This document shows positions 27,617 through 61,986 of a stretch of 64,000 nucleotides of DNA, one piece after another. Position 1 is the stretch's first letter; each line of letters begins with the position of its first letter. Location of the stretch: positions 11,014,634 through 11,078,633 of the forward strand of contig CAJINV010000002.1 of the NCBI GenBank assembly GCA_905178155.1. The letters run 5' to 3'. The DNA is from Amoebophrya sp. A120. Taxonomy: Eukaryota; Protista; Dinoflagellata. The notes beneath the pieces were generated by a model. It made no database searches, had not been told where the DNA came from, and saw only the letters and a list, made by a program, of their open reading frames with translations. The position numbers and the translations under genes are program-made.

Positions 27617-28449
27617 GTATCGTTAGAAGGTAGTTGTACAACTACTTCATGATAATACGTATCAGTGCTTTTTTTAAGTCATTATCACTGTGTGTTTATG
27701 GAAGTCACCAGAAGGCTCAGTGGAAATACGAGTTCGACTTGTTTGTCTTTTCCGTCCTAAGCTCGGTGGAGTTCTCGTTTCCGGTGCGCTTTACTGCATT
27801 CGCAAGAAGCAAGCCGCTGGGCCTTTCAAGCTTGGGGTCTTGTTTTCCTGTTCGACATCCACGGAACCCAAGAGGCGGCGGGTTCTGTGGCTGGTTCGTC
27901 GGGGGTTAAGGATGCTCTCCAGCTCTTAGGACTGCATCTTTTGAACACTGAGCGTGAGGGTGGTAGCGCGAGGTGGACCTCATTTGAGCTTCCCTTCACT
28001 GCTAAAACGGGTGGTGTTGCGTCGCTCGAATTGCCTGGCTCTCAATGCAATCCAGCGCAGACAATTAACATTCAGGAAACCAACGACAGGACGAGGGCAG
28101 CTCTTCAAGCTCGCCTGACAAAGAAATAGTTTTTTGTCTAAGAAGCTTGCACTACATTGTCTTTTCCGTCCGATTTGTTTGTCAGGACGAGGGCAGGTCC
28201 AGGTGGGTCGAAGATGAGTAACTTAGGAGATATGATTCCGTACACGTACAGGTTCAGAACCGCCGAGGACAGAGTTTCGACTCCAGCCTGCAACCGAGTA
28301 AGAACCAAACAACAAGCCCGACGAGTCACAAGTCTCTGCGGCGCGACGGTTCTCCCGCTTTTCTTGACCAGGAGATAGAGTCCCACCAGTCGGCCCTCCT
28401 CCAGGGAACGGCCTCCCGGAGCGCTGCTGCGACACGCACCAGTTCGACT

Positions 28450-30693
28450 TTGGTGTGGCTCCTGTTTGTGTGCGGCCTCGTTGTGTCAATGATTCTCGTT
28501 CTGCGCGTGCAGAACAAGAACTTCAATCCGACCGCCCTGCTTCTCAACACGACCCCGAGGTGGCCGACTAACTTGCTTCCTTCGTGGCCGCTTTTAAGAG
28601 GCACCTGGAAGATGACAACCGAGGCCAACGGGACGGGGTTCTTCGTTGCGTCTTTTCGGGAAAAAGGTGGTCAAAGCCCATACACGATCCATCGGAACAA
28701 ACAGCCCGACGGTGCGCAGCAACCCGTTGCAACACAGAGAAGAGAGGAAGATGAAGATGCACTCCTTCGCACACGAGCGTCCGTGTCAGGAAGAAGGAGA
28801 AGTAGGTTGGCGAACAGCACGTCAAAGTCGAGGAAGATGCGGCGGCAAAACAAAGCCGCGCCCCTGGTACCGGAGCGGGTTTCTCGCGCAACAGGCGCCG
28901 AGAAGCAAGGCGTTGCGGCTGGAAGCCGTGCCAATATTACGCCCTCTTGTAGTCTTCTTTGTGCGACGAAGGAGTATGAACATGGCGACTACGATGGTTT
29001 GCGTTCATTGCGCTTGCTTTCCTCGCCTGCGTTGCAAGTAGGCGGCCGCCGGCAGGTATGCAGGTTGCAAGGCGAGATCGTGGCGTTGCCGGAGACCGGG
29101 ATTTCTATTGCAGAGCATTCGACTTCTGGCGACCTCTTTGGCAAAACGCGGGCTGCCCCATTTTTCGATGAAGACGCTGCCCAGCAGGCCATTTGCAGCC
29201 CGTTTACAGAGACCGCCTGCCTTTTTTGGGAGGCAAGCATCATACAGGAGGGCGGGGCCGGAGGCTTCGAGGTTGGGTCACGGAGCCTTTGCCAGCGCCA
29301 CGCCTGCGTCTCTGGAGGATTCGGGATTCGGCTGGCGAACAGCGAGAAAGTTGTGCTCGTCAGCGAAACCGACGCCGTCTGCCTCATGGTGGAACAGATG
29401 AGGTTTTCGGAGAGGATTCCCCCTCATTCGTCGCATTCACGTGGTCCCGGCGCCATGGCTGCTCGTTCGGCGCCCCTCGTGGCGCCGAGAACAAAAGCAG
29501 CACACGGTCGGGTTTTACCTACGGAGCAGACCGCGCCAGAACAACATGCCTATGGTGCGACGAGCCTGGTCCTTCGGCCGGCTTTTCGGCCGGCGGTCCG
29601 CGAGGTGTTGGACCTAGATGCTGTCCGTTGGAAGCGGGAGCGGGAGGAACTGCGGGGACCTCATGATGTTGACAAGACACGAACGCCCTTCTCTACTACG
29701 ACTACTGTTCCTTCAAACTGCATTTCAACAACGTCTCGGGAAGTGCTCGAAGCCAGGGCCCGGGGGTTTTTCCAATTCGCCGATGCTCCTTTCCGCTCAC
29801 AACCGCGCGGAAGGAACCTTTGCCGGTACTATGACGATGGGGTCCATGAAGAAATCGACCTTTACGAAGATGATCGCGAATGCGAGTCGGAACAGCGTGC
29901 CGCTTCACTGCCACGGGTCGAGACCGGCTTCCAAGACTGCAACGCCGCACAATTTTATGCGCAGGGACATCAACTACTGACAGAGACAGAACGGGCGCGG
30001 GGCGAGCAGCTCTTCGGTCAAGAGTTCCAAAATGGCGCAACTCTGCTTTTGAAAGAACAGTGTCTTTGCGCAGGGATGACTGTAACGGCGGTGGGAGAGG
30101 TGCGAACTCTTAATAACGGACAGCTCGGGCTGTTTGGAGTCCGTCCCGAGGACATCAGTTCTCTTCGCGGACCATACAGAGACGAATGCAACACTTCGGC
30201 GGACGTCCATGATACTGCAAATCATCCGACTACATCAACAACAACCAGAACATCATCTGCAGCGGACCTGACATCCTGGGAGCGCGACCTGCTACTCCGC
30301 AACTGCTGTGTGCGGAAGGACGCGGCCGGGTTGCTCAAGAACTACGGGGAAGAAAGGCAGCGACGCCGCATTCTCCTTTCGGATCGGCAGGATTTCCACA
30401 GCGATGTTGAACATGCTAGACGAGTCAATACAACGAGCGGACTGTCAGTGTCCTCGCGTGTCGCTTCGTCGCGCAACAACGAGCAAAAAAGAGGTGGGCC
30501 GCAAAAAAACACCACCAAAAGCGGAGCGGATCGACTCGAGCAGTTGTCGCAACCGTCGCGAACCATTTCGACCAACACCACAGCCAAGGGTGGACAGGTA
30601 GAAGCGCCGGCTGGTGGGGGTGGAGAGAAGCCGGTCCCGGGCGTCCACATCCAGCAGACGAATCCGACACTCGGTCGCCAATTTTTTCTCTGA
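28450..30693 (+). CDS. Membrane-anchored protein with a possible GIDE (MUL1-type) domain; probably an internal or terminal exon
   Basis: N-terminal hydrophobic segment; ICSPFTETACLFWE and LKEQCLCAGMTVTAVGEV...GQL...ILLSD resemble GIDE motifs. The ORF does not start with ATG. Confidence 0.55.
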   Translation: MVWLLFVCGLVVSMILVLRVQNKNFNPTALLLNTTPRWPTNLLPSWPLLRGTWKMTTEANGTGFFVASFREKGGQSPYTIHRNKQPDGAQQPVATQRREEDEDALLRTRASVSGRRRSRLANSTSKSRKMRRQNKAAPLVPERVSRATGAEKQGVAAGSRANITPSCSLLCATKEYEHGDYDGLRSLRLLSSPALQVGGRRQVCRLQGEIVALPETGISIAEHSTSGDLFGKTRAAPFFDEDAAQQAICSPFTETACLFWEASIIQEGGAGGFEVGSRSLCQRHACVSGGFGIRLANSEKVVLVSETDAVCLMVEQMRFSERIPPHSSHSRGPGAMAARSAPLVAPRTKAAHGRVLPTEQTAPEQHAYGATSLVLRPAFRPAVREVLDLDAVRWKREREELRGPHDVDKTRTPFSTTTTVPSNCISTTSREVLEARARGFFQFADAPFRSQPRGRNLCRYYDDGVHEEIDLYEDDRECESEQRAASLPRVETGFQDCNAAQFYAQGHQLLTETERARGEQLFGQEFQNGATLLLKEQCLCAGMTVTAVGEVRTLNNGQLGLFGVRPEDISSLRGPYRDECNTSADVHDTANHPTTSTTTRTSSAADLTSWERDLLLRNCCVRKDAAGLLKNYGEERQRRRILLSDRQDFHSDVEHARRVNTTSGLSVSSRVASSRNNEQKRGGPQKNTTKSGADRLEQLSQPSRTISTNTTAKGGQVEAPAGGGGEKPVPGVHIQQTNPTLGRQFFL

Positions 30694-31068
30694 TTCTTGC
30701 ACACAAAATTAGGCAAAGCGGTACAAACTGACCATAGCAAGCAAAAATCTTCACTGTCCCATCGGTCATTTTTTTCCTATGCATCTCCCGTTTAGGCGTA
30801 TTAGCATCGTCATGAGTCATCCTCGCGAGTGAGCTTCCGCAAACGCTGCAAAGTGGCCCTCAATTCATCTTTCGCTAATATGCTTCAATGTCTCTGGCTC
30901 TTCCTTATGCGCCTCTTGCTGTTACGCATTTTATATCTGGCATTGCGATTTCCTTTAGCTCAAGAGCTTGCAGGTCTCTACGAATTCCTTGCAGAAAAAT
31001 CCCCAAAAGCATACCCCTAGCAAGTAGAATCAGAAAATCAATTGGTATCGCGACCCCAGCGGCCCAGG

Positions 31069-32202
31069 ATGACTAGATCGCTCTCCTCTCCGCCAACCTC
31101 CAGATCGCGACCACGGAAAATGGACGACACTGAGCACGAGGTTGCCCACCAGCCGCAGCTGACCGCCGTCCTCGTCCATTCGCATCAAGCAATCCGGATC
31201 AGATCAAGATCGACCCCACCCTCTATGCCGTCAAGCGAATTAAACACAAGGGATACGGAGATGGTCAACCTCCAAGATAGCGACATCCCGCCAGATACTT
31301 CGACGCAGAAAGAAAGACCAATTACGAGGGCAACCGCGATCGCATCCATGAGATCAGAATCAGCTCCACCAACCGCATTCTTCAAACAAAAAGCAATGCC
31401 GGCATCAACGTCCACGACATCCCCCCAAGAAATTACAATCCAAAAGAGGGACAGCGGCACTCTACCATCGAATCAAGTAGCTGTCAAAGCCGCTTTTCAT
31501 CCATCTAATGGCCGCGGCTGGAGCATCCTATCGACAGAAGACTTTCCGCAGCTCGTTACAGGTAGAAGCCGCGCCGCATCGAGTCATTATTGCGCCCCAG
31601 ACTTCAGCCGGCTGATTCCCGACCTCGCGAGATCAACTAGCAGAAAGCTGGCATCTTCATCCTCATCGAATTCGAGTGGCGCCATTACAAGCAAAAGTCG
31701 CCGCACATCAAGCAATAGTCCTCTACGAGTAGCATGGGGATCTATCCGGCTACAATTATCAAGCGGAGCAGCTGCATCCACCTCATCGAACTTTTCTCGG
31801 TCATCGAGCAAGCAAACTACCTCGACCTCAAATAGCGACCCCACGACGGTATCCGAAAAAGAAAAATTAATAACAGGAGGCAGCTCAAATCCGCATGTGT
31901 CAAGCTTCCCAGCAGCTGCGGCACTTTTCGCTGACACCTCTCCGGACGACGACACCATCGAAGAAGAAGAAGCCACAAATACGAGGAAAATCTCTTCGCC
32001 AAAGAAAAAGCGTCGAACAAAGAAAAAGCAGATAAGGAGTAGGTCGCTGATTTCAAACTGGCGTTGGCTGGAAGGTCTCTGGTGGGAAGAATTACTGATT
32101 AAAAAAGCCCAAGCCAAAGCCGAAAGGCCGCAGAAAAAGACGACAAAAGCCATCAGGACGTACCGTCACAGATCAGCGGATGGCTGCGCAGAAACCGCCT
32201 AG
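31069..32202 (+). CDS. Retroelement N-terminal ORF (Ser-rich, basic), in frame with the 3106-aa ORF
   Basis: First ATG at 31069; ends at TAG 32200-32202, after which the same frame stays open to 41613. Confidence 0.6.
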   Translation: MTRSLSSPPTSRSRPRKMDDTEHEVAHQPQLTAVLVHSHQAIRIRSRSTPPSMPSSELNTRDTEMVNLQDSDIPPDTSTQKERPITRATAIASMRSESAPPTAFFKQKAMPASTSTTSPQEITIQKRDSGTLPSNQVAVKAAFHPSNGRGWSILSTEDFPQLVTGRSRAASSHYCAPDFSRLIPDLARSTSRKLASSSSSNSSGAITSKSRRTSSNSPLRVAWGSIRLQLSSGAAASTSSNFSRSSSKQTTSTSNSDPTTVSEKEKLITGGSSNPHVSSFPAAAALFADTSPDDDTIEEEEATNTRKISSPKKKRRTKKKQIRSRSLISNWRWLEGLWWEELLIKKAQAKAERPQKKTTKAIRTYRHRSADGCAETA

Positions 32203-35200
32203 AGCATCCTCCTAGGATCATCCATCTGCAAAGCCGGCCAGGATATCAGCTGCGAGGAATTCGCAAATAAAATCGCCAAATCAGGAGGCTTCGTGTTGGT
32301 TTTCAAATCAGCAATATGGACGAGAAAGGGAGCGCTTTTAAGGCAGGACGAAGAAAAGCCGACTACCTGGGGAAACGTAAAAGGGGCCTACATCGGAGCG
32401 GTCGTTTACTCTCTTCCTCAATCCCCCGGCGGATCAGGACACATCGAAGTCATACGACCCGATTGCTGCGTCGCCTCGAAAATCAGCATCGAGTTCTTGA
32501 AGAAACGGCGACACCTTAGGACTCCGCTCCGAGCACTAGGCAGAAGAAGAAGCCACGCAGGCTTAGCCGGGAAAAAAGGAAAGAAAGCAGGCTCAATAAA
32601 GCTCAGTCAAGCGAAACTAGAGGAGTTCATTGCAAGACTAGCACAGAGCGCTCGGCTAAATACTTCTTCTGCGACCTGGTTCAGACAAGCGTCCCAGGGC
32701 AGCCGTCGGGTCATTCTAAAATTCGGCAACGACGACTTCCGCCACGTCATCCACTGGAAGTCGACAAACACGATCTTCATAGACGAGAAGAAAACCGAAA
32801 ATTTTTCTATCTCGGAGCGCCTACTAATCTGGAAGGAGTCGGGCCTAGTGAGGGGAAAATTGCCGCCCTTTTCCTTCGAATCAGCATGGGACAAGAGCGC
32901 CGACATAATAAGCTGGGAGTTCCCGAAGCTCGGCGAGGAGCCGTTTCCAGAGGAGCTCCACCCTCCAGACGCATCGAAGGATTCAAACAGCGATAAACCG
33001 GCGCCGGTGCTGTCTCCGCGTGACCTGAAGACCCTGCCCTCGACGATCTCGCAGCGCTCAGCCAGCTCCGCGGGCCAAGCCGCCCCCTCCTCCAGTGGCG
33101 CAAAGATATCTCGAGCACCCCCCGCAGGAAGCGCCTCAGCGGAGGCGTCGCAGATTCATTCAGACAGCGAGATCGTTAGGAACAAGCCCGCAGCGAGATT
33201 GGACAGCAGTAGCTCTCGTCGCGATCCCTTGTTCCTCGATCCCTCGGGAAGATCAGACCTCATCGGCAGTAGATCCAAGAATATCACCACGTCGCCACGC
33301 ACACATCTTCAAAAAAGTGAACAGCTATTCTCCGCTGATGGATTGGCAGATAGGTCCGACCCGGGGCGCAGAAAGACCAGCAGAAGTTCGAGCCGCGATT
33401 CCTTCTCTCAAGATTCCGACATCTACTACGATGAATTAGACGGCGTTTGGACATGCAAATGCTGTGTCGCGCGATTCGAGTCAATCAAGGACTTGCGATT
33501 CCACATGAACAAGGACAGGCATTCAAGAAACTCGATGTCGATCGGATGGTGCAAGGACAATGCGAGCAAAGTCGAGGAGTTCTGGTTCGACCCGTTGAGC
33601 CCGAACAGAGGCTGGAGTTGCGATCTATGCCGGAAAATCTATGGTAGCGGAAACAAGCTCAAGCTCCACTTCCAACAGGACGAGAATCATAAGAGGCTGG
33701 TCAAAAGAAGCAGGAAGCAAAATCAGGCGAGCACATCCACAAAAAAGGAGGAAAGATCGGATGAGAGTAGCACTTCTAGCAGTTCTTCATCGGATCCTTC
33801 TGCCGGTTCTAGCAGTTTTAGCGGTTCTAGCAGCTCTTCATCGGCAGTCAACCAGGTCCGGGAGCCCAAATTGCAAGAGCGTCATCCAGATATCGGAAAA
33901 AAAATGCAAGATTCGGCACCAGCTAGAGACAAGACTAGCAGCACCAGCCCCGCTAAAGAGAGCCACGCGCTTGCGTCCAAGATAAAGGATAATAATAACA
34001 ACGGAGAAAGTAAGAAAGCAGCCAGTTCCGCGCAATTTTCTCCCGTGCCGAAATCGAGATGGAGCTTGACGTCAGAAGATGATCTCCTGTCCCCCTTCAT
34101 ACGTCGCACAAATAAGCTCATCGACTACAGCTCGGAGCCCAGCAGCCCGGCAAGGATGTCGTCAGAAGTAAAGAAAGGGAAAAAACGTCGTCCAAGTTCC
34201 AGAAGAGAACTTCCGCATGCTCCAGCAAACGCGACAATAATACTAGAAAACGATAAGAAGAGGCTGAAGCTAGAATGTACGGATTGCGGTGCTATATTCT
34301 ACGACAAGACGGACTTCATCAACCACGTCTGCCTGTCAAACGGGGTGCCAGATGTAGGGCCCATAGTGCTAAGGGGCACGGGGTCAGTAGCCAGCTCCAA
34401 AAAGGTCCGATCTTCGGCTTCCACGGCCCGCCCAGCCGCCCCAGTTCCCAAAGTAGCCGCCTCTCCACCAGCCAGAGAAGACGACGTCTCGGACAACGAC
34501 CAAATGTCCTGTTTCAGCGACCTGGACCTCTCGGATAAAATGTCGGTATTTAGTGATCTCAGCGACATCCTGCTCCCCGAGGCGGAAGAGGAGGATCGTC
34601 CTTGCTATCCGAAGAAGCCAAGAAAGTCGACGCCTCGCCTCCAGCTGATTCTAAAAATGAGAACAATCGAAGGCAAAGACAAGAGCGTCTCGAAATGGCT
34701 GAAAGACTTGGAGAAATTCGCGAAAAAAGCCAAGATCCGGGCGGCTTTTCACGAAGCAGCAGAAGCAAGATTAGCAAGCCTCCCTTTCCCTCTACAGGAA
34801 CGAGTCATTTTCCTGTATTTAAGACTAGATAAGACCAATAAAGCGGCGCAGTGCAAGAAGGTCGGGGACGCAATCCAGACGGCAGCAAGAACAGTAGGCA
34901 TAAACTTCATAACAGGAATCCATGCGAAGGACTGGATCAAGCAAAAAGGGAAAAAGGAAGCAGTAGTAGATAGCGACGATGACGCCGAGGGCGCGTTTAT
35001 TGCTGCAGCATCCAAATTATCAAAACAAGCATCATCCGGCAAGTCTTCGGTAGCAAGAGCCAATCTGCTACTCTACGGAGAAGAGTCAGCGGAGCATATA
35101 TCAAATTTCGCGAAGGATGAAGATGCAAAAGATGCAGCGCAGGCTAAGTCCTTCTCGATAAGAATCGCAACAGCATTGTACGGGGAGCACAATAGAGTGA

Positions 35201-38200
35201 AGAAGACGCAAGATGAAAGCGGAATAATAAGCAAGATAGCATCGCGCTGGATATCTGCGCTAGCGAAAGCGAGCGGCATTAAAAAAAAAGAATTCACCCA
35301 GACGACGACGACATTAACCCGAGGCTCGGTTTTCGACGACAAAGTTGCTTTAGAGCGGGGATTGAGTCACGGAATGCCGGCGGAAGAAATTGCCGATTGG
35401 AACAAGAAAAGGAAAGAGGGTATCGAGCGCCTGTGCTCGACCCTTAGAGAACTAAGAAAAGAAGCTGCCGCGGAATTTTATAACGAGGACGGCGACGACG
35501 AGGATCCTTTGCTCAACTCCATCTTCATCAAGAAAAAGACAGAAAGCCACCTCTTCATCCCACAAAGACAAGCGATCGTGCTTGAAATCAACAGAGCACT
35601 GATAAAGTCGGAGAACAAATTCATTGCAGCCGCGGAGTCACTAGGATTCGGGAAGTTGCAGCTATTCCACGCCAAATCCAATTTCGACCTGGATTTGCGC
35701 GACAACAGGGAAATAGCAGCAAGGACGGAAATGAACAGGACTAATCATGAATGGCAGATCAAGTTGACCAGTCTCCGACAAAAAAAACTCTTCAAAGAAT
35801 CCGGCTACACCAACATGCTAGCAGCAAAAAGACCGAAGGGATCCGGAGCACTATCCCCGAAGATCAAAGCAAGCATCGGAATTGCTTCGTCAGCGGATCA
35901 GCTCGCCGCGGAAGGGGGCCCGCCGGCCAAGGTTAAGAAGAAGGTAGAGCAGCCAGTCTACATGATCCTGCCAGAAAAGGCAAAATCGCCTCAGATCCCG
36001 AAATGCACGCTGAAAGGTGCCGAAGAGTTCACGAGCCCTGCCAAGAAGATAAGGAAAAAAACTGGAAATGAAGCACGTGGGTGGAAAGAAAATCTGAAAA
36101 GAATAATAAGTAAATTCCTGGACGATGACGAAAAATGGATCAAGAAATTCTGGGAGGCGAAGAAAGTCAAGGACGACGAAGAGGCTACGTTCGAGAGATT
36201 TGTAGTTCTGTGTCACAAGAAAAGAGAAGAGAAGATAGGAATCCTGCGAGATTGCAAATCAGAACTGCAGCCGCTGCCGCCGAAGAATATTAGAGAGTTC
36301 AAAAGCAAGGTGATAAAAGCCTTCGAGAAAAGGTTAGAGAAAGAAATGTCACACATCTCCGAGCCTTGCCATCATCCCGTATCCTCCGCAGCAGAAATTG
36401 ATAGCGCTGCGTCATCATCTTCTTCCGCTGTAGCTCCGCGCGCGACCCCGCTCGCTCCCGCTGTACCAGCCACTAAAGGTCTTGCGTCGCCCGCGGCACT
36501 CAAGTCGATAACCGCCAAGCCAGGTATTAGCGGAGTTTCGTCAAAGCTGATGAACCCGGGAGAGGAGAGCAGAAGCAAGTGCGACTTCGTAAAAGTTAAA
36601 CCGGAAGAAAAAATAATGATCAAGGACATTCCGGAGCTTCGTAGGAGGAGAATAAAAGGAGAGCTTCCGACCGGCGTACTGTTTTGCGACGACATGAGTT
36701 CCGAAATCATCTTCAGATGCAGGAAATTCGACCCAGATCAAGGAATAAAACTAGCAGCGCGTTTCCTTCTTACAGCTCCTGCCAACGCCTGGACGGCGTA
36801 CTTCATTGATGCATCAAACGATCTTCGAATGGCAGCAGCAATCGACAAAGATATAGATGACGGAGAAGGGAAGACAAGAATAAAAATAATAAAATCAACG
36901 CAGATTCAGGACTTCTTCCTCTCCACTCCTCGTTCGGGCGTGTTCATTGCTGCGCAGCAACATTTAAGTAGCTCTGCGCGTGCTGCTGCAGGACCGCTCA
37001 TCAAAGTGGTGGAGCAGCTGCTGCGACAATCCGGTAAAGCGCTCCCAGCTAACAGCTTCTTCATCCACCCTGACGACCCGGAAGACGAAGGATTCACATG
37101 TGACAAGGTATCGATTAGAATCAGCGGGAGCCGTGCAGCATGGATTCTTCAGAAGGAAGGAGGACAGGGAAGAGCCGCGTGCTGGTCAAGATTGCTGATG
37201 AAGCAGCTGGCCGGCGACCCCGTTTCTGCTTGGTACAGCCACAGAGCGGAGATGGATGCGATGCTAGAGCAAGACGAGGAATCATGCGAGGCGTTCGAGC
37301 TAGCCCTAGCCGCAGTAAGCGAAGCGGTCGAGGACAAGTTGCTAAACGACGATAGTTCCTCGATGATCATGTTCTGCCACCTCAACATAAACGGCATATC
37401 ATCGAACCAGCGGAAACTAGAGAGCGCATTCTCCAAAGCACTAGACGCCGCAGAATTGCGGGAAGTAAAGCGGACGCAGCTTCTGGTAGGAGGATGCGAA
37501 CCCAAATCATTTAGCCCGCCCGAGGCGATTTCTGCAGAGCAGAATGAAGACACACAGTCATCGATAGAGCTGATCACCAAATCGTCCAACTCAAGCTGCG
37601 GCGGCCCCTCCGACGTAGGGATGACATTTATATACGCAGGATCAATCGAGCGTAATGAAGAAAAAGGAAGAGATCGATCAGCGACAGATTCGACAAGCGG
37701 CGTCAGCAAATTCGAAGTAGCGCAATCGTGGACAGTGATGGCAAGAAAATCCCCAAGCAGCAACACAATCGGCGAGCAGCTAATAGCAAACGAAATAAAG
37801 AAGGAGGACCTGTTTCTATGGGCATCTCTAGCCGCGGACGACAGTTGCAGCACGCTCGAGATATATGCGAGGCCGTTATCCAGCAGCAGCGCCCACCTGG
37901 ATATCCAGTATATTAAATCTCAACTGGATGAAATAGAGAAATCGCACCAGAAAACAGCAGCGGAAACTGCGATCAACTTCATAGCAGGGGACATCAACAT
38001 AAATCATTCCACGGATGATATGGCGCTGTTCGAGGAGAGTATCAAGAAGAACTACGGATCCAACTTTGCCAAGGAAATTGGGAAAATCTTCTGCGACTTC
38101 ATTATTGCAATATCAGCAGGGTTTCAAATAGTTCAATTCGAAGGGAGAAAGACTTACCGCGACATCAGCGCGCTGGACGTAATGTTTGTCAGGGACAGAA

Positions 38201-41200
38201 ATCAGCTAGTCGCATCCTGGGCGTCGTCGATCTCCCGATGGGACTCGGCAGGCGAGGTAGTGGACGATCCAGAGCTAGCAAGCGACCACGCCATGCTAGC
38301 GATCCACGGAGTAATCGCGGCGCCATCAGAACCTGAATCCCTATTCCGCAAATCAGACCCCGCTGTTGATCCAGGTCGTCGCTGGAGAGGAAGTGCATGG
38401 AGAATCAACGACACGGACTCGATTCGGAGCGGCTGGAGCGCAGCATGGAAAAACGATTCTTGGATCTACGCGAACTGGGAAGAATTTCAGCTGCCGAGCA
38501 GGATGCACCCGAGCCCTCCGGAGAGATTCAACTTCGTTCCAGAAGGAGACAAATTCAAAGGGATCTTCTACGCGCTCAAAATTCCCAGAGGCTTGAAGCT
38601 GATAAAAGACGAGATTGCGACCGCGCTGGAAAAGCAGAAAAGTCGTATTCTCCTGGCCAACAACAAAGACGCATTTACGGACGCAATCGCGAAGGCCGTG
38701 CTCGAGGACAAAAAGCTTGACCGCCGCATCTACTATAACCAGTTATCGCTTCCGGAAAAAATCACAGCCATCAAGAGCAAGCACCCAAGAGCAGGATCAT
38801 CGTCCGCACTAAGCAAAGCAAAAGAAAGCTTCATAGGAAAAGCAAGGGGCCAGCTGATAGAAAAAATCAAAGGAATCCGCACAGAATCAGGAGACGTAAT
38901 GGATTGCCCCTGGTCAGCCCTATTAGCAGTAGCCAGAGCGAACTTCTACAAGTACTCGGCGACGTTGGAGGCACTGCTGATCGACAACGATTTCTCCTGC
39001 CAGATCTACAAGAAGACGCTTACGGCGCTGCTAGCAGAAGCAAAAAAATGCCTGCCGCTGATTATAAATCCAGAATTATTCCAGAAGGAACTACAACTAC
39101 AAAGCGACGAGCTGCAAGGCCCTTCTGGAGTAAAAGGTAGCGTCTTCAAATGCCTACCCGACTGGGGCAAGGAGAAGCTGCGTATCATCTTCAACGCAGA
39201 GCTGGAAGCTCTTAGGTCGGAACAAGATGTAAAAAAGCTTCACGAAATCATCGGCGGAAGAGGCTCCAGATACACGACGGCCGCGCTAGGCAAAGGAGGC
39301 AGAGCTACGGAGATCCCAAAGTTAAGATTGACAGCTTCGCAGGAGTGTGTAGAAAGACTACTAGACAGCTGCCTCTTCGCGGACTTCGAGTGTCTAGCTC
39401 AAGGACGAGAACTACACCAAGGGGTAGCAGTCGGGGGCATGAAGAAAATCAACTTGCTGTGCGCCGAGCTTTTGAGGATAAAGGAACGGGAATGGCTGCA
39501 AAATTTCAGAAGTCGCTTAATTTTGAAACTAAGCTTCGACTGGAGACAGATGTTTAACTGCATCGGCAGGCCCACCGCGTTCGCTATCCTCAAGTCAGCA
39601 AAGCCGCACCCGACAGCTCTCGTCAGATGGCTCCTGAGACAAAGCAACAAAAAAATCTATCTGCAATCGGAGAAACAGCATCTAGTAGTAAAGCAAGTAA
39701 CCTCATGCATCCAAGGCACCCGAACAGCATTAGCAGTAGGAAAAATCTTATGTGCGGACTGGGTAGCTATGGCGAAAGCGGCAATCGCAGCAAGCATGGA
39801 CGATGACGACGCCCTATCGTCCAGCCGTATCGACGCGGCCGGCGAGTTGTTGCAGAATATGATAGCAGTATCAGCGAAGAAATTCGAAATTCCCTCAGCG
39901 GCTTCGTTCACCTCCGCGGACATCGACAGAATGTTTTTAGTCAACCATTTCAGGGCGGAGGGCGCGCCGGAGCCGGAGAAGGATCAAGCAAATGACCTGC
40001 AATCGCTGATAAATAAGAAGATCAAGGAAGGAGTGATCCGGGAGGACGCCTGGCGCAATCTGATGGCCGCGCTATGCATCGACGACACCGAGATCAGCAT
40101 AAAATTCACCATGGAGGACATAGAGAATGGCAACCTGGAGAGATTGTGCAAGCTTATCACAGACAGTCTTCTGCAGTGGTGCTACGCGACCAGAACCTTC
40201 ATTGCGGCAGATAAATGCGAAGCCGTGATCCTCAGCCACTTCTCCCAGCCGCACGACAGCACCATTACGAGCCAGAGCCAGTCGCCGGCAGCCTTCGGAT
40301 CCAGCTCGGCTGCGCGTCGGGACCTCGAGAAGAAAGTAGCCGGCTTCCTATCGCTAGCAGGGAAAAAAATAGAAGTCAAGGAATCGATCAAGCTCTTCGG
40401 ATTCCCGGTCGCTAGCGATATAGAAAAAGCATACAGAACCAGCTGCAGACAGAAGATATGGTTCGCGATGGCAATAGTGCGAGAAACACTAAGAAGAGGC
40501 GCGTCTACAATCCGGACTTCTGAGCACAAGCTGATCCCGCAATACGTGGCACTAAGTAGTATCCGCCACCTGCTGTGCCCGATGATATGTTTCGACCCAG
40601 ACGGCGTGAGTGAAATAATGCAGCAGGTCGCCAAGAAACTTCTAGCTTGCTACGGGATAGACGACAGCGAGGCGTCAACCCTGCGAAGATTACTAGAAAG
40701 AAAAAAGCTGCACGACGTATCCGACTCCGAACTATTATTCTCCGGAATTCTGCAGGATCCAGGTTGGAAAGAAAATATGTTCAGAACAGTAAGAAAGGCG
40801 GCGCTGAATCAGTCTTCCACATTCGGTAGGAGATTCCTCGCAGCATCAAACGGGGATCTCGGGCTACTGGATTTCTGCACGTGGGGGCTAGACGAGGACG
40901 AAAAAGAACCAAGATTGAGAATACTCAGGGACGATAGCATATCGATCTCTCAAACGAACTCCTACAGAGGGATCCGCCTCGCGTCGCAGCTAGCAAGAAA
41001 CAACATAGAGATAAAATGGATCTCGACAGACACCACCACAGACTTCTCCAAATTCACCACAATAGTACAAGCCGACGGCTCCTTCGCGCCAATTGACGCC
41101 GAGATGCTCAGCGACTACGTTGCAGGAGAATCAGCGCGCATCTTCTCTGCAGCAAAGTTTATAGAAAACAACCCCGAAGTAATATCCGCGGGGAAGCCGT

Positions 41201-41613
41201 TGTTGATTCTCGGATGCAGCCAGCGGATGATGGAGAAGAACTCAGCAGCTGCTGAGGCGTTCCTCGTAGCCCTGGTAGAAGCGGTAGACCTCGCTCCCAA
41301 TCAAGCAAGAGGCGCAAAGATCTTCATGGCGGGATCGACCCCGCATATAGCGCCACGAGGCTCCACAAAAACCTCCCAGCCAGGCCGAAGTCCAGCGATC
41401 GCAGACGTACCTCTGTGGGATTGTGACGTCCGCCTCCGCAGCAGCGAAAGAGACGACAGTATAGCAGAAGAAATCTGGGAATTGGACCTGTTTGACGAAA
41501 GATCAGGGGAGCAAAACGAAGAGATTAGTGCCACGAGGAGGAAAAAAAACACTAAAGCAAAAATAGAAAAAATAGAAAGAGTCCTACAGTCCGAAACGGA
41601 TGAAAGTAACTAA
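32203..41613 (+). CDS. Retroelement polyprotein: C2H2 zinc fingers, APE endonuclease, reverse transcriptase, RNase H-like C-terminus
   Basis: Zinc fingers: CKCC..F...DLRFHM...H (~33450), CDLC..Y....KLKLHF....H (~33620), CTDC..F....FINHVC (~34280). APE: HLNING (~37380), GCEPK, IYARP, AGDININH (~37985), TY...SALDVMFV, SDHAML (~38281). RT: GPSG, LRL, FDWRQMFNCI (~39535), IQG (~39710), CIDD (~40075), K.E, KLFG (~40390). RNase H-like: QADGS (~41070), GESARI, ILGCSQ. Confidence 0.85.
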   Translation, partial: SILLGSSICKAGQDISCEEFANKIAKSGGFVLVFKSAIWTRKGALLRQDEEKPTTWGNVKGAYIGAVVYSLPQSPGGSGHIEVIRPDCCVASKISIEFLKKRRHLRTPLRALGRRRSHAGLAGKKGKKAGSIKLSQAKLEEFIARLAQSARLNTSSATWFRQASQGSRRVILKFGNDDFRHVIHWKSTNTIFIDEKKTENFSISERLLIWKESGLVRGKLPPFSFESAWDKSADIISWEFPKLGEEPFPEELHPPDASKDSNSDKPAPVLSPRDLKTLPSTISQRSASSAGQAAPSSSGAKISRAPPAGSASAEASQIHSDSEIVRNKPAARLDSSSSRRDPLFLDPSGRSDLIGSRSKNITTSPRTHLQKSEQLFSADGLADRSDPGRRKTSRSSSRDSFSQDSDIYYDELDGVWTCKCCVARFESIKDLRFHMNKDRHSRNSMSIGWCKDNASKVEEFWFDPLSPNRGWSCDLCRKIYGSGNKLKLHFQQDENHKRLVKRSRKQNQASTSTKKEERSDESSTSSSSSSDPSAGSSSFSGSSSSSSAVNQVREPKLQERHPDIGKKMQDSAPARDKTSSTSPAKESHALASKIKDNNNNGESKKAASSAQFSPVPKSRWSLTSEDDLLSPFIRRTNKLIDYSSEPSSPARMSSEVKKGKKRRPSSRRELPHAPANATIILENDKKRLKLECTDCGAIFYDKTDFINHVCLSNGVPDVGPIVLRGTGSVASSKKVRSSASTARPAAPVPKVAASPPAREDDVSDNDQMSCFSDLDLSDKMSVFSDLSDILLPEAEEEDRPCYPKKPRKSTPRLQLILKMRTIEGKDKSVSKWLKDLEKFAKKAKIRAAFHEAAEARLASLPFPLQERVIFLYLRLDKTNKAAQCKKVGDAIQTAARTVGINFITGIHAKDWIKQKGKKEAVVDSDDDAEGAFIAAASKLSKQASSGKSSVARANLLLYGEESAEHISNFAKDEDAKDAAQAKSFSIRIATALYGEHNRVKKTQDESGIISKIASRWISALAKASGIKKKEFTQTTTTLTRGSVFDDKVALERGLSHGMPAEEIADWNKKRKEGIERLCSTLRELRKEAAAEFYNEDGDDEDPLLNSIFIKKKTESHLFIPQRQAIVLEINRALIKSENKFIAAAESLGFGKLQLFHAKSNFDLDLRDNREIAARTEMNRTNHEWQIKLTSLRQKKLFKESGYTNMLAAKRPKGSGALSPKIKASIGIASSADQLAAEGGPPAKVKKKVEQPVYMILPEKAKSPQIPKCTLKGAEEFTSPAKKIRKKTGNEARGWKENLKRIISKFLDDDEKWIKKFWEAKKVKDDEEATFERFVVLCHKKREEKIGILRDCKSELQPLPPKNIREFKSKVIKAFEKRLEKEMSHISEPCHHPVSSAAEIDSAASSSSSAVAPRATPLAPAVPATKGLASPAALKSITAKPGISGVSSKLMNPGEESRSKCDFVKVKPEEKIMIKDIPELRRRRIKGELPTGVLFCDDMSSEIIFRCRKFDPDQGIKLAARFLLTAPANAWTAYFIDASNDLRMAAAIDKDIDDGEGKTRIKIIKSTQIQDFFLSTPRSGVFIAAQQHLSSSARAAAGPLIKVVEQLLRQSGKALPANSFFIHPDDPEDEGFTCDKVSIRISGSRAAWILQKEGGQGRAACWSRLLMKQLAGDPVSAWYSHRAEMDAMLEQDEESCEAFELALAAVSEAVEDKLLNDDSSSMIMFCHLNINGISSNQRKLESAFSKALDAAELREVKRTQLLVGGCEPKSFSPPEAISAEQNEDTQSSIELITKSSNSSCGGPSDVGMTFIYAGSIERNEEKGRDRSATDSTSGVSKFEVAQSWTVMARKSPSSNTIGEQLIANEIKKEDLFLWASLAADDSCSTLEIYARPLSSSSAHLDIQYIKSQLDEIEKSHQKTAAETAINFIAGDININHSTDDMALFEESIKKNYGSNFAKEIGKIFCDFIIAISAGFQIVQFEGRKTYRDISALDVMFVRDRNQLVASWASSISRWDSAGEVVDDPELASDHAMLAIHGVIAAPSEPESLFRKSDPAVDPGRRWRGSAWRINDTDSIRSGWSAAWKNDSWIYANWEEFQLPSRMHPSPPERFNFVPEGDKFKGIFYALKIPRGLKLIKDEIATALEKQKSRILLANNKDAFTDAIAKAVLEDKKLDRRIYYNQLSLPEKITAIKSKHPRAGSSSALSKAKESFIGKARGQLIEKIKGIRTESGDVMDCPWSALLAVARANFYKYSATLEALLIDNDFSCQIYKKTLTALLAEAKKCLPLIINPELFQKELQLQSDELQGPSGVKGSVFKCLPDWGKEKLRIIFNAELEALRSEQDVKKLHEIIGGRGSRYTTAALGKGGRATEIPKLRLTASQECVERLLDSCLFADFECLAQGRELHQGVAVGGMKKINLLCAELLRIKEREWLQNFRSRLILKLSFDWRQMFNCIGRPTAFAILKSAKPHPTALVRWLLRQSNKKIYLQSEKQHLVVKQVTSCIQGTRTALAVGKILCADWVAMAKAAIAASMDDDDALSSSRIDAAGELLQNMIAVSAKKFEIPSAASFTSADIDRMFLVNHFRAEGAPEPEKDQANDLQSLINKKIKEGVIREDAWRNLMAALCIDDTEISIKFTMEDIENGNLERLCKLITDSLLQWCYATRTFIAADKCEAVILSHFSQPHDSTITSQSQSPAAFGSSSAARRDLEKKVAGFLSLAGKKIEVKESIKLFGFPVASDIEKAYRTSCRQKIWFAMAIVRETLRRGASTIRTSEHKLIPQYVALSSIRHLLCPMICFDPDGVSEIMQQVAKKLLACYGIDDSEASTLRRLLERKKLHDVSDSELLFSGILQDPGWKENMFRTVRKAALNQSSTFGRRFLAASNGDLGLLDFCTWGLDEDEKEPRLRILRDDSISISQTNSYRGIRLASQLARNNIEIKWISTDTTTDFSKFTTIVQADGSFAPIDAEMLSDYVAGESARIFSAAKFIENNPEVISAGKPLLILGCSQRMMEKNSAAAEAFLVALVEAVDLAPNQARGAKIFMAGSTPHIAPRGSTKTSQPGRSPAIADVPLWDCDVRLRSSERDDSIAEEIWELDLFDERSGEQNEEISATRRKKNTKAKIEKIERVLQSETDESN

Positions 41614-41814
41614 AAAACTTTAGAAAGTCGAAGAAATTCTTTTTGTTAAGATCTCCAGTCCGAAAGAGAAGAAGGTAATTAAAAAGAACTTTAGATAGCC
41701 ATTGAACTTTTTTTTAGTATCGCAAAAAAGAACTAGAATAGACCAAACCGAAATATCCACAACAACAAACGAGCGAACTACCTTTAGACAATACCATCTT
41801 TACCTCGATGATAG

Positions 41815-42306
41815 GGATATTTGTTTCTCGGTGCCTATCTCGACATCGCAAAAAAGAAGAGACTCGCAAGCGACAGCAAGCAGGCGGCAGGATCGACGTT
41901 ACGGATCAAAAAAAATACTCCTCGGAGGCTAATCGTCTATTGTGCGCTCTTCGGAGACTAGATCTTACCGATCCAGTGTCGATTCAATGAACAAACCGAC
42001 TTGTATTTTATTCTCTTCGGAGCCTAGCTGTTAATGCTTCTTCGGAAGCTAGATGTGATCTGGATATTTGATCCGCGGAGCATATCTCGACATCGCAAAA
42101 AAAGAAGCGACTCGCAAGCGACAGCAAGCAGGCGGCAGGATCGACGCTACGGACCAAAAAAAAATATGCTCTTCGGAGACTTTACGACTATTGTGCGCTC
42201 TTCGGAGACTAGATTTTACCGATCCAGTGTCGTTTCAATGATCAAGCCGATTTGTATTTTATTCTCTTCGGAGCCTAGCAGATATTGCTTCTTCGGAAGC
42301 TAGTTG
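41815..42306 (+). repeat. Two tandem ~247-bp units rich in C(UUCG)G hairpins; probable structured 3' UTR
   Basis: 41815-42061 aligns with 42062-42306. CTCTTCGGAG or GCTTCTTCGGAAGC occurs at 41947, 42013, 42036, 42169, 42198, 42264 and 42287. Confidence 0.85.
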
Positions 42307-44385
42307 TTACGATGCGCCGCGTCTAGCTATCTCGAGTCCTCGGATTCTATACGGTATCGGGCCTTCGGGCATCAATCGGCCAGTTATGCCTGGACGATCC
42401 CCACACTCGACCACGACCAGGACGACATCTTCAAAGCTCGCCACGGATGCAGGTTCAGTTCCCGCAGCGAGAAGACGACTGCACGAGGAGCCCGACACCT
42501 ACCCGCCTACCCAGCAGGCAAGCTACCATGAAAACGATTACCAAGGCAGCCAGGTTTTCCCGAGCAGCAGTGCGCCCCCCTCGTTTTTTTCCGATGGGGG
42601 CCGGCGCTTCGGTGCAGTTGCCGATCGCAGGCAAAAATCAAGTTCTACCTCTTCCGGGTGTTCGTTATTTAGCGGGTCCGGAAGTGGCTCGTCGACGGAA
42701 TCTACGCCATCTTCGAGCGTTTCTCCCGTCGCCAGGCCGCGCAGAACGGTATCCCGTGGAAACAATAAAACCAACTTTTGAGCAGGGCGCGCACGCGCAG
42801 CTTGTGCGGCGCTGGCTTTGTTACTGCTGCTCCAACACGATTTGCAATTTTAGGTAAAAGCATCAGCGATATAAGAAGTCAATTCGGATACGGATTGTTC
42901 GCCACAAAATGAGTTTAGAAGACAAGAAGAGTCAGAATGGAAATCGGACTTAGGGTAGGATCACGCCTACTGCGATTGGAATTCAATGACCAACAAATAG
43001 AAATCTATATTCTAAATCAAATGAAAACCCATGCTCAGGAAATGGAAATCGATGGCACACTGTCACTTGCGTGGTAGGGCCAGCATTAAAACAAAAATTG
43101 ATATCATATATACAAGGTTTCAGTTTGTCTATTACTATGTTTCGTTCGATTTAAGTTTCAAAATATTTCGGATGGTGGATGTGTTGGACAAGCAGAACCG
43201 CAAGGAACTCCTGGCGCTTACCGTTGTGGGCCGTCGATGATCTGCTACATCGTGATCCCCAAAAACAAAAAATGTATTTTTGATACAGGGATAGTAATTC
43301 AACAGTGCCTGGTGTATGTGTTGCTTCATGTGTAGTGTCCATCCGTCCTGTCTTCGCGGCAAGCTCGATGTGATGTTGCATCCCGACAGACGGGCGTTTC
43401 TTGAAAGTGTATGCTATCCATCTTGCGCTTGCTGTCAGACTTAGAGATAGAGGAGGTAGTAGTCTGCGTTTCATAACAATTGGGTTCATCAGAACCAGCA
43501 ATGCAAATGAACATGAGAAAACCTTTTTCTTGCCCGAATCTCGTCCTGTTTGATTTTGTTTCTTGACAAGTAATTCCGAACCACAACCACTTGCACCTCA
43601 TTGTGAATGTACCATAGCAGCTGCTTTTATTTCCAGTACCAGCTGAATCTGAAATTCCCCAGAATCAGAAAATGAGACGCAGTGGTGTAGTGATCTGGCA
43701 CGGTGACCGAGTCGCGTTTATCGTGGCAGGGGATTGTGTTCATTTTCGTCCTCTCGTGAACCCTTTTGCATTGCTCAGAAGGTCGGTGTCATGTCAACAG
43801 AAATGCCCGATAACATAAAGGTTAGAGTTGTCTACTATCGCAATCGCCACAGCGGCAGGGACAGCCCATGCCAGGTTCTATCGTTTTCAGTTTTTCGTGC
43901 TTGCCGGCCGGCGAAAGTCGACTTTGCTTCATATTCGTGCGCGTGTTATTTATTTTTCGCTATCGTCGAGCTCGAGATTGTGATTGTTTGAGATTCCCAC
44001 CAGAGCAGATGATTTCAAAAAATCGTCGCCGAGATCGTCGTAATAAATGAATCGCCAGTCAGACGCACTCTGCAAGAACGCGAGCCGCTGCACTTCCCAA
44101 CATCGATATTGCGTCTGCGTGATTTTGAAGAGTCGAACAGATGGGAGATGCTGGGTGAAGAAGATGAAGAGGGGCCGGGCTTTTTTGCTATTGAGAATAG
44201 ACTACTGCTCCGGACTGTCGACTTCATGCTTTCCGCATTTAGATTTAAACTTAGAGGCTGAGGATGTGCTTGTACTTGAGGTCGCTGTTCTGTTGCGCCA
44301 TCATATAGCAGTGCCGGCACTGGACATGAAAGTTAATATCGTGTTTATTGCTTGAGGTTGAGCATTGGCGTGTTTCCTGTCCCAG

Positions 44386-46932
44386 ATGCAAATGAGCACT
44401 AACGCCGGGGGCTCGGCGAACACGGTAGCACCCGGCTCGCACCCACCCCGGCGCGCAGATGAGCGGGAGCGCCGGCTTTCAACGGGCCGCGCGCTGCGGG
44501 AAGCCGGCGCCGTCGAAAGCCATGATGACCATGAGTTGCTCTGGCTTCCCCCTTCCGGGAGTGACATGATGCAGAGCGTCAGATCCTCACCACGCGTGAA
44601 GAAGGGCGCAACAAACATCTTCCTAGCATCCACGCCGGGCAGCTCCTCCGATCTTCGGGCCCGTGGGCCCGAAGAATCGCTGAGGCCACCCGCGACCGCG
44701 ATGACCAGCACTGGCCGAAAGTTGTTGCGTCGAAGCCCATTGCAGTCACGGGGGCCGCGCAAGACTTCATCGTCTCCATTGGGCAACATCTTCGCAGACC
44801 CCCGTCAGGAGCACGCTGTTTTTTCCAGAACCAGCAGAAGAACGGCGGCGGAGCAGAAATTTGCGGACTTCGGGAAAGAGTCTCCTCTCTTTGGGGCGGT
44901 CAGTTCTCCACACGGCAGTTCCTTTCCAGGATCAGATGCACTGCTTTCGCGAGTTAAAAATAAAGCAGTGTATCTAGCACAAGATTCCGATCGGGAGAAA
45001 GCGTCATCTTCCGCCTCTTCAAGTTTCCGTGCGTCAAGAAGTGACAGCAGTACTACGGTAATGCGAGGACAATTAGAGCAGGGCTTTGGTACCGCTGCAG
45101 CGGACAAGTTTGCAGCGGGAGCCGTGTCGACTACTCCACCCTTTTCGTCGTCTGCGTCGTCATGTTCCAGTAGCAGCAGAGGGAGCAGAGACTTCTTCGG
45201 CGGTGCTGCGCGTGGTGCCGCTGCAGCAACCGAACCACGCTTGCTCCCAGGCGAAAGTAGATCAAGCTGGACATCAAACAGGGCAGGCGCTTGTGCACCG
45301 GCGAACGCGGGGGCTGCTCCGTCGCACGACGAATATTCCAGCAGAGTTGACGAGCTTTCCGGAAGTTGTTCCCGTTTTTCTAGTACCTCAGCATCTGCTG
45401 CTTCTGCATCGCAATATCCTCGAAAGCAGCAGTTCGTACGTGCGGCGGAACCAGAAGCAGCATCAGCTGCCACGGGCGATGCGACGTTTCTGGACGGTGC
45501 AAGAACGTGGGGTGAGTCGACATCTTCTGCAGACCATGCGTATGGCTCAAAGCTGAAAGCTCCGGCCGCAACAGTTGCCTTCCCTGCTGCCGACGCATCA
45601 TCATTTTATTCCGTTCTGTCCGGCAGCTCCGCAGTGATCTCTCCGCACTGCAGTGTGTCCTCATCATCTTCTGTCAAGCGGCGGATGCAGGAAGGCAGGA
45701 GCCAGCTCTTGAACGCATCATCTGTTGTGTCGTCTCTGATCACTCAAGCCGGTGAAAGTGCGCGAACTGCTATGCGGACGTCCTTTTCGGCGCGTGTGCA
45801 CCGCTCGTTTTCACCCAACCATCGCCCCCCCGGTGCGTTCCGCAAAGGATCTTCTGTGTCTCCAGGTGGTGCAGTGCCAGGGGGAAATAAGTGGACGTCC
45901 TCGACGGCGGATCGAGCACGACGACCGCTCCTGCATACGAGAGTTGATGAAAAAGGAGAAAATAAAAATGCAGGCGAAAATAAAACAAGCCAAGGACTGC
46001 ATCTGTGGCTGCGTGAGGATGGAACAACGACGCAAGATAAACAAGATCTTCAACATATCAATGTGCCAGTACAAAATAAAGAACCTGCGCCGCGCGCGGC
46101 CCAAGCGCTTCCCGGATCGCGGGTGAATCTAAAATCTTTGCAGCTGCGGGACAAGGCGCAGCTGTTCGTCGAGCTCTTGGGAAGTCCGGAAAAACTGACG
46201 GAAAGTCTGCAGATTCGTGTCCCGCGAACAGGAACAACCGCATCGCCAGAGCACCGGGTCGAGCGGGCTTTGAGTGTCGCGCGGAATTCGCTGCGCAGTT
46301 CAACGAATAATCGCAGTGCCGAGATGGCCGATCAGCTGCGGCTTGTGCAGCGCTCATTCTCACCACGAAACTTTATCCGCAGATTCAAAGCCCAGCAGCA
46401 GCGACAGCACCATCTGCAGGGCGATTACCGCGTAGTAAAGTCCCTTCCTCATTCCAATTACGATGAGCGACCCGCGCATGCTCCTCCTCCTCTTGGAAGC
46501 CGAGCAGTAGCAACTACAGCAGAGTCCGCGACGAGACTGAAATCCTCACCCGCGTTCGAGGATCCATCGCTGTATGGCTTTCAGCATGAGGGGTGTCACG
46601 ACGGTATTGATCACGACCCCGATCACCACGCTGAAAGTCCAGCCTGGAGGGCGGATCTCTACACGGTAGGAGATGCGTTGCCGACGAACCCGCACACCCA
46701 CGATAGTTCTGGCACGAATGCTGCAAACCGAGGTATTATTGTGCAGGACGTCGACCAAGTAGCTAGTACATCAAAGCCACCTTACGTGGCACTTGCACTA
46801 AGGGAGGCTGCGGCTCTGCGCGCTGCAGAACGGGAGCGCGAGCGTAGAGTTGCCCAGCAAAAGCAAGAGAGTTTCTTGCTCCGGTCCACCCGCGTTTCTC
46901 GTTCTCCAGCTTCGCGTTACGAAAGTGGATAG
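44386..46932 (+). CDS. Hypothetical Ser/Ala/Arg-rich protein (~850 aa)
   Basis: Long open frame; no recognisable domain. Confidence 0.72.
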   Translation: MQMSTNAGGSANTVAPGSHPPRRADERERRLSTGRALREAGAVESHDDHELLWLPPSGSDMMQSVRSSPRVKKGATNIFLASTPGSSSDLRARGPEESLRPPATAMTSTGRKLLRRSPLQSRGPRKTSSSPLGNIFADPRQEHAVFSRTSRRTAAEQKFADFGKESPLFGAVSSPHGSSFPGSDALLSRVKNKAVYLAQDSDREKASSSASSSFRASRSDSSTTVMRGQLEQGFGTAAADKFAAGAVSTTPPFSSSASSCSSSSRGSRDFFGGAARGAAAATEPRLLPGESRSSWTSNRAGACAPANAGAAPSHDEYSSRVDELSGSCSRFSSTSASAASASQYPRKQQFVRAAEPEAASAATGDATFLDGARTWGESTSSADHAYGSKLKAPAATVAFPAADASSFYSVLSGSSAVISPHCSVSSSSSVKRRMQEGRSQLLNASSVVSSLITQAGESARTAMRTSFSARVHRSFSPNHRPPGAFRKGSSVSPGGAVPGGNKWTSSTADRARRPLLHTRVDEKGENKNAGENKTSQGLHLWLREDGTTTQDKQDLQHINVPVQNKEPAPRAAQALPGSRVNLKSLQLRDKAQLFVELLGSPEKLTESLQIRVPRTGTTASPEHRVERALSVARNSLRSSTNNRSAEMADQLRLVQRSFSPRNFIRRFKAQQQRQHHLQGDYRVVKSLPHSNYDERPAHAPPPLGSRAVATTAESATRLKSSPAFEDPSLYGFQHEGCHDGIDHDPDHHAESPAWRADLYTVGDALPTNPHTHDSSGTNAANRGIIVQDVDQVASTSKPPYVALALREAAALRAAERERERRVAQQKQESFLLRSTRVSRSPASRYESG

Positions 46933-47267
46933 GTCTTACCCCGCCCTCTTCTTGGCCGACGTGCATCTAACTTTGGCAAAAGATAGAAACGATTGCTAGG
47001 GCAAGATAAAGAATGCAGGAAATTCTGGTGCATAACTTTAACTACCTGTACCTAGACTTCTGTGGTTAGTTTTTTACTTGTGTCTTCCTCCGGAAACTGT
47101 CATACAAATAACACAGCCAAGTGCAAACGAAATCAAATGGGTATCATGGCAACCCAAAGTCACAGAAAAAGGTAGGACTATGCAAAAGAAGCGGAGGAGG
47201 AGCTGTTCACTAGCATACGCGTTCGCGACCGGAGACACCAGCCGGCGCGACTAGGAACGGCCTATCG

Positions 47268-61185: not shown

Positions 61186-61189
61186 TCGT

Positions 61190-61962: not shown

Positions 61963-61986
61963 AGAAGCTTGGGCACTTTGTCTGCA

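Follow-up and report, generated by a model that had tools for sequence, protein, structure and literature searches.

Among the retrotransposons without long terminal repeats (non-LTR), human L1 (PDB 9hdo, 8sxt and 8c8j), a long interspersed nuclear element (LINE), carries in its second open reading frame (ORF) product, ORF2p, of about 1,270 aa an AP-endonuclease (APE) domain, a linker, a reverse transcriptase (RT) and a thumb/wrist region, in this order. Its catalytic triad consists of D600, D702 and D703, the first Asp and the Asp pair thus being 102 aa apart, and F605 serves as gatekeeper against ribonucleotides (PMC10830420). R2 elements (R2Tg, 9dou; R2Bm, 8ibw/8gh6) encode a single long ORF with N-terminal zinc fingers and use a C-terminal restriction-like endonuclease (RLE). 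Very long protist ORFs with APE and RT are known from Dualen/RandI, where Dualen-1_GCr of a cryptophyte reaches 5,287 aa (PMC5029228); these elements are defined by APE plus RLE and also have RNase H and CCHC motifs (PMC5029228, PMC4640811). RNase H, with catalytic residues D-E-D-(H/R)-D, follows the RT in the I group, Proto1 and plant L1 as well (PMC4640811). Background on non-LTR classification was taken from PMC5718144. Here we describe a locus of Amoebophrya sp. A120, a parasitic marine dinoflagellate, that lies in a 64-kb window of contig CAJINV010000002.1, the whole stretch of DNA analyzed. With a probability of roughly 0.65 we read it as a LINE-like retrotransposon of the APE-type non-LTR kind, present as a lone copy, that belongs to a family restricted to Amoebophrya, is predicted to move by target-primed reverse transcription and was, in this copy, likely disabled by a stop codon. 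Positions are those of the window and residues are counted from the ATG at 31069.

Translation of 31069-41613 (+) gave 3,514 codons interrupted once, by a TAG stop, which splits the region into 377 codons and a stop-free frame of 3,136 codons. A sequence of this composition should contain about 161 stops over 3,514 codons (log10 P of about −64 for none in 3,136), and we therefore regard the frame as real coding sequence. It is intron-free and A-rich amid host genes carrying introns. A strong skew of A over T extends across about 31.0-41.9 kb with a change point near 30992, and the codon usage of the frame was unlike that of all eight host ORFs tested. The preliminary description of this DNA, drawn from its letters, had reported one intronless frame of about 3,500 codons, which has to be corrected for the TAG. 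The size that it called giant holds in that the frame is very long, but it is not unprecedented given the cryptophyte Dualen.

Profile methods did not recognize the polymerase. Pfam gave no RVT_1 match in the whole ORF, in nine segments of it or in 13 relatives, in agreement with the deep divergence proposed earlier; nothing significant came from searching PDB sequences, whether with the RT by itself or with profiles of the family, and a word-seeded protein search with the RT region had no matches. The ESM Atlas returned RVT_1 clusters with scores of 0.95, 0.93 and 0.91, in which 15%, 72% and 46% of the members, respectively, carried RVT_1. In an AlphaFold2 model of aa 2632-3484, computed from a 14-row alignment (predicted local distance difference test, pLDDT, 72.6; predicted template modeling score, pTM, 0.71), D2824 is positioned at a strand end and the Asp pair 3005-3006 within a beta-hairpin, the arrangement of a polymerase palm. 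The first 13 Foldseek matches of this model were all human L1 ORF2p or R2 (E 3e-7 to 1e-4), followed below rank 13 by a group II intron RT, DRT9 and HCV NS5B; in the viral library, captured LINE-like RTs and RNA-dependent RNA polymerases were found and nothing closer. Structural comparison with VIA gave Z scores of 19.6 for R2Tg (root-mean-square deviation 4.3, 481 residues aligned), 16.9 for R2Bm and 16.7 and 16.3 for L1. The thumb- and wrist-like region is conserved across relatives and lies inside the ranges aligned to L1 and R2 (model residues 1-660 up to 1-762). Because this fold match occurs together with an APE domain upstream, we assign the RT to the non-LTR type, an assignment that the predicted fold supports and that agrees with the one made before from motifs.

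The motifs DWRQMFN, IQG and CIDD were confirmed at 39538, 39709 and 40075. The catalytic Asp pair was kept in 12 of 12 relatives covering the site, and the first Asp with a Phe at +5 in 10 of 10. From the first Asp to the pair, the query measures 181 aa and the relatives 165 to 182 aa (nine of nine measurable). Between the starts of QG and DD the earlier figure of about 120 aa proved accurate, with 122 aa in the query and 106 to 123 aa in the relatives, again in nine of nine measurable. Judged from these alignments the long spacing is a signature of the family and not the decay of one copy. The extra 70 to 80 aa of the palm form helices in the AlphaFold2 model. Enzymatic activities, here and for the other domains, are ones that we infer.

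Upstream of the RT, the APE-type motif set claimed before is complete (37378-38290). The pattern N, E, Y-x-x-P, GDxN, T, D and (S)DH could be aligned in the query and five relatives, with P0002 lacking the N-terminal motifs. A profile built from five relatives with the query excluded matched aa 2097-2415 at E 1e-33. Relative P0017 passed the Pfam cut-off of PF03372 (28.2 versus 24.5 bits) and P0013 showed a weak match to Exo_endo_phos_2 (E 0.017); the query itself had no direct Pfam endonuclease match, and the top PDB match of the family profile was an exodeoxyribonuclease, weak at E 0.45. Motifs and family profile support an APE-type endonuclease, and its place upstream of the RT is the L1-type order, which supports the reading as an APE-type non-LTR element.

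A phmmer search with aa 2296-3480 against 1.84 billion representatives (E <= 1e-3) gave 16 matches, 13 of which were relatives and three were fragments that are identical to the window, with no match outside the family of the element. A word-seeded search with the family alignment returned three matches, one of which, P0017, was new. The resulting 14 relatives comprise six from A120, six from strain AT5.2, one from A25 and one Logan protein; all 13 named ones are from Amoebophrya and carry no annotation beyond 'unnamed protein product' or a bare gene id. Each genome thus holds several divergent paralogues (one in the case of A25), pairwise identities within the family are about 20 to 59%, and several relatives are fragments. 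P0005 is a continuous gene model of 3,877 aa with the same layout as the element. In a tree of 11 RT cores, from which four fragments were excluded, strains were interleaved on long branches and the paralogue sets were uneven, with an A120 pair, an AT5.2 trio and a single supported cross-strain pair; P0013 and P0014 grouped at 100/99. Interleaving and branch length indicate that the sublineages predate the split of the strains, and divergent paralogues with interleaved strains are as expected of old mobile lineages. Metagenome scans gave 127 and 322 pattern matches, none of which was confirmed. No description of the family was found in the literature covered, which did not extend to Repbase, the datasets of PMC12130899 or most subscription papers; the available parts of PMC7789003, PMC12130899 and PMC11453091 mention non-LTR elements in Amoebophrya only generically. 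In the gene model of P0014, a V-SNARE domain (aa 1-145, Pfam E 7e-8) precedes the retroelement protein, probably because the annotation is mis-joined or because the element inserted beside a host gene.

Compared with L1, the element is alike in domain order, in the catalytic triad and its Phe at +5, in the fold match (Z 16.0-16.7) and in an A-rich candidate target-site duplication. It differs in its length of about 3,500 aa, in the lack of a separate ORF1 in its relative P0005, in the palm insertion of about 80 aa, in reading C-I/V-DD where L1 has FADD, and in lacking a C-terminal CCHC motif and a visible poly(A) tail; identities in the structural alignments were 8 to 12%. R2 was the best VIA match and shares the single long ORF with N-terminal zinc fingers, whereas in the family the RT is preceded by an APE domain and an RLE pattern is absent. 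The coordinates of all features are collected in Table 1.

Table 1. Features of the element and its candidate boundaries in the Amoebophrya sp. A120 window
Feature	Position	Strand	Basis
13-bp direct repeat, left copy; candidate target-site duplication, 5' boundary	31026..31038	+	exact 13-mer
N-terminal 377 codons, Ser/Thr-rich with a basic patch	31069..32199	+	codon usage, alignment to P0005
Single in-frame TAG	32200..32202	+	translation
Open frame of 3,136 codons	32203..41613	+	translation
Three zinc-finger-like motifs in low-complexity sequence (aa 796-818, 851-874, 1070-1088)	33454..34332	+	pattern
Lys/Arg-rich region of ~900 aa without domain assignment	34636..37356	+	Pfam, Atlas, comparison with P0005
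Putative AP-endonuclease (APE/EEP-type) domain: N2106, E2144, Y2266, D2308-x-N2310, T2362, D2370, S-D-H 2405-2407	37357..38313	+	family profile, motifs
Predicted non-LTR-type RT, fingers and palm: D2824, F2829, QG 2882-2883, DD 3005-3006	38962..40419	+	AlphaFold2 model, fold matches
Predicted helical insertion of ~70-80 aa between QG helix and DD hairpin	39820..40059	+	model
Helical thumb and wrist-like region	40420..40941	+	VIA-aligned ranges, conservation
C-terminal alpha/beta domain containing DGS; RNase H identity unsupported	40963..41334	+	alignment, model
Candidate 2-kb 3' untranslated region with 251-bp tandem duplication (41815-42307)	41614..43660	+	repeat analysis, RNA contigs
13-bp direct repeat, right copy; candidate target-site duplication, 3' boundary	43661..43673	+	exact 13-mer

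The candidate target-site duplication occurs twice on the + strand of the window and never on the − strand, its left copy lying close to the skew change point, with 30 nt between it and the first ATG. The two copies would bound a unit of 12.6 kb (31039-43660). No long direct repeat flanks the frame within 29.5-45 kb, as would be seen with long terminal repeats, the only long repeat being the internal tandem duplication. RNA contigs from four runs (two samples, one study) ended at 43610, 43630, 43660 and 43672, that is, at the right repeat or within about 50 nt of it. They span the upstream gene through 31.6-31.9 kb and, piecewise, 38.1-43.7 kb; over 31.9-38.1 kb there was no RNA contig and the TAG site is thus uncovered. 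In all four runs contig depth climbed toward 43.6 kb (Spearman 0.96-1.0), a weak hint of one long 3'-biased transcript from contigs that give neither strand nor level. At the DNA level, one unbranched contig of 13,756 bp spanned 28135-41890 in both runs with no differences over the compared part, and depth over the ORF was like that of the flanks (43.2 versus 43.5 and 22.8 versus 26.2), depth not being a copy number. Short matches to 42056-42402 were found elsewhere, namely a contig of about 88% similarity and 48 matching bp within a 13-kb contig of a DNA run; these may be 3' parts of related elements. Three Rfam matches, all under the gathering score, were treated as chance. At the left boundary, a 20-nt inverted repeat (30678-30697 and 31026-31045) overlaps the left 13-bp repeat with its right arm, and no splicing was seen there. 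That 31069-32199 could be the final exon of the host gene that lies upstream, joined through this inverted repeat, was rejected on the basis of its element-like codon usage and its homology, and no such joint was listed.

The stop codon bears on whether this copy is intact. The first 377 codons have element-like codon usage (log-likelihood ratio, LLR, +14; eight of eight host ORFs were negative) and are collinear with aa 120-378 of P0005 at a score of 96, which none of 300 shuffles reached (maximum 72); against the whole of P0005 the observed score was reached in none of 100 shuffles, and BLASTP alone gave E 11. The alignment to P0005 extends over the TAG (score 57, none of 300 shuffles), partly driven by the upstream match, and similarity of aa 379-640 alone to P0005 was not significant. 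On these comparisons both parts, before and after the TAG, belong to the element. The TAG, which was also present in the contigs of both DNA runs, possibly the source of the assembly itself, is most simply read as a nonsense mutation in what was originally one ORF. Alternatively, the same retrotransposon could be intact, with the TAG as a programmed junction, either read-through or a non-canonical intron, yielding an abundant product of 377 aa and a rare full polyprotein. That 3,514 codons hold a single stop and no frameshift would fit this, as would a frame that stays in phase past the TAG with no nearby Met (the next is aa 813, 435 codons downstream), the abundance of non-canonical introns in the host (PMC7789003) and the RNA contigs over the 3' part of the ORF. 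Yet the P0005 gene model is continuous and has a sense residue in the column aligned to the TAG, an observation at the level of the gene model; RNA around the TAG folded no better than shuffles (z +0.34 and +0.49) and no stable structure was found downstream of it; and no spliced joint is listed near the TAG, a site that the RNA contigs miss. We consider an intact element unlikely, and a gag-pol-like read-through switch at the TAG doubtful.

Could the locus instead belong to a domesticated, non-mobile family of LINE-derived host genes, its endonuclease and RT serving repair, retro-duplication or intron spread? The single copy in two DNA runs, the low identity among paralogues, some sublineages shared between strains and transcription of part of the locus are in favor of this, but a domesticated gene would have to be reconciled with the in-frame stop, the lack of introns and the codon usage unlike that of the host, the candidate target-site duplication at the flanks, the fragmentary state of several relatives, and paralogue sets that are uneven and not one-to-one; we regard it as improbable. 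Derivation from Dualen/RandI or another known long-ORF clade, by loss of the C-terminal RLE and decay of RNase H, appears very improbable: the giant ORF, which encodes APE and RT followed by an alpha/beta domain at the C terminus, recalls Dualen ORFs, which combine APE, RT and RNase H at up to the length given above, and the top Atlas cluster is diatom-rich, with the phylum known for only three of its members, but the query and its 14 relatives, several of them partial, have no CCHC or RLE pattern by regular expression, and phmmer found nothing beyond the family. By this pattern comparison the defining feature of Dualen is missing. The preferred interpretation, a disabled copy of a LINE-like retrotransposon, has several observations against it as well. 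In VIA a group II maturase (Z 16.2) and the RT of a diversity-generating retroelement (15.5) come just under L1, so the fold alone separates RT classes weakly, and the APE assignment comes from motifs and the family profile. Repeats of at least 13 bp arose by chance in 5 of 500 shuffles of a narrow window, chosen post hoc, and in 23 of 300 of a wide one. No poly(A) run or tail precedes the right repeat at 43660, and a 179-codon ORF in the candidate 3' region (42242-42781, +), covered by RNA contigs, has host-like codon usage (LLR −17), so that a host gene of its own may occupy 42.3-43.7 kb; the 3' boundary is for both reasons a candidate only. The contigs of the two DNA runs contained no near-identical second copy, so that mobility is a prediction. 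A frame of 3,136 codons next to a single stop also fits selection. The recent activity suggested earlier was not borne out, as no near-identical second copy was seen and the frame carries a stop.

In the retrotransposon reading, an RNA of about 12.6 kb (31039-43660) would be translated to one polyprotein of about 3,500 aa, whose long, basic, zinc-finger-bearing N-terminal half may bind and chaperone the RNA, by analogy with ORF1p of LINEs that have two ORFs. Integration would start with a nick made by the APE domain at an A-rich target. Primed from this nick, the RT would reverse-transcribe the RNA, and the 13-bp duplication would result from a second nick.

The fingers of the N-terminal half agree with the three C2H2-like ones described before, in that two read C-x2-C-x12-H-x5/6-H and one C-x2-C-x12-H-x-C; Pfam zf-C2H2 matches to them were weak and below cut-off (best E 0.002), and P0005 has one finger of each type. 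In the Lys/Arg-rich region that follows, Pfam found no match, the Atlas gave no usable match for 36610-37362, and similarity to P0005 was marginal, the observed scores being reached by 5 of 100 and 21 of 200 shuffles. In P0005, aa ~440-545, a Cys...His pattern resembling that of OTU-type proteases was spotted by eye, possibly straddling the position of the TAG; Pfam, PDB and pairwise alignment gave it no support and it is not claimed. A word-seeded protein search with the P0005 N-terminus among shorter proteins had no matches.

At the C terminus, the element has an alpha/beta domain after the thumb, at the position of RNase H in the I group, Proto1 and plant L1, but residues corresponding to D-E-D-H-D are not conserved and the model matches no RNase H. 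The DGS motif on which an RNase H had been proposed is present; of six aligned relatives, one keeps its Asp and another has Glu instead. The remaining RNase H acids were absent, and neither the query nor any of the six has an Asp where the later strand ends, all in a low-identity alignment. The query also lacks about 20 aa of this domain that all six aligned relatives have. Pfam showed no RNase H match in the whole ORF, nine segments and 13 relatives. A separate model of the C-terminal domain (pLDDT 67.7, pTM 0.57) had no Foldseek match at E <= 1e-3, and its helical N-terminal part accounted for the VIA list (best Z 5.0). The modeled order of strands and helices is compatible with a decayed RNase H-like domain, and an active RNase H is unsupported. 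No Cys-pair finger follows the RT.

A strongly modified, genus-wide APE-type non-LTR family is what these data describe, and the status of a new clade is plausible. We would give even odds to a wider proposal, in which an unnamed, deep-branching APE-type non-LTR clade confined to Syndiniales has fused ORF1-like and ORF2 functions in a single polyprotein of 3,500-3,900 aa, gained a new helical palm subdomain of about 80 aa, and persists as units of about 12.6 kb in many single-copy lineages that RT profiles fail to see; such a clade would be a candidate supplier of the RT activity behind retro-copied genes and introns in these compact genomes. Since none of the 13 scanned relatives has a Pfam RT match, the family is a blind spot of profile-based surveys of transposable elements. 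Its conserved palm insertion represents a testable structural adaptation of an otherwise very constrained polymerase core, and if early-diverging dinoflagellates hold a long-branch lineage of APE type, this would add new evidence on when APE elements arose. Amoebophrya genomes are known for invasive introns, some of which were attributed to non-LTR elements (PMC12130899), and the family offers a concrete candidate enzyme for them; target-primed reverse transcription as such is already known.

The neighboring ORFs are low-complexity eukaryotic genes, none of the eight scanned having a Pfam match. RNA contigs skip one GT..AG intron and one intron with non-canonical ends. The former, 635 nt at 27615-28249, contains a high-copy repeat (27830-28165) with many variants in the DNA run; the latter, 305 nt at 46913-47217, has CG..TA ends and was skipped in two runs. 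Intervals bounded by inverted repeats and non-canonical introns have been described for Amoebophrya (PMC7789003), and two short inter-ORF intervals of the window, 8252-8547 and 58494-58752, bounded by inverted repeats of 62 nt and 35 nt, resemble the introner-type non-canonical introns of this genus. Together with the origin of all 13 named relatives, such features point to a likely host within Amoebophrya. A dispersed duplication of about 1.5 kb (15706-17234 and 23302-24779) has copies 83-92% identical and about 7.6 kb apart. Near the end of the window, 60025-62270 is occupied by adjoining satellite arrays with units of 22, 16 and 13 bp.

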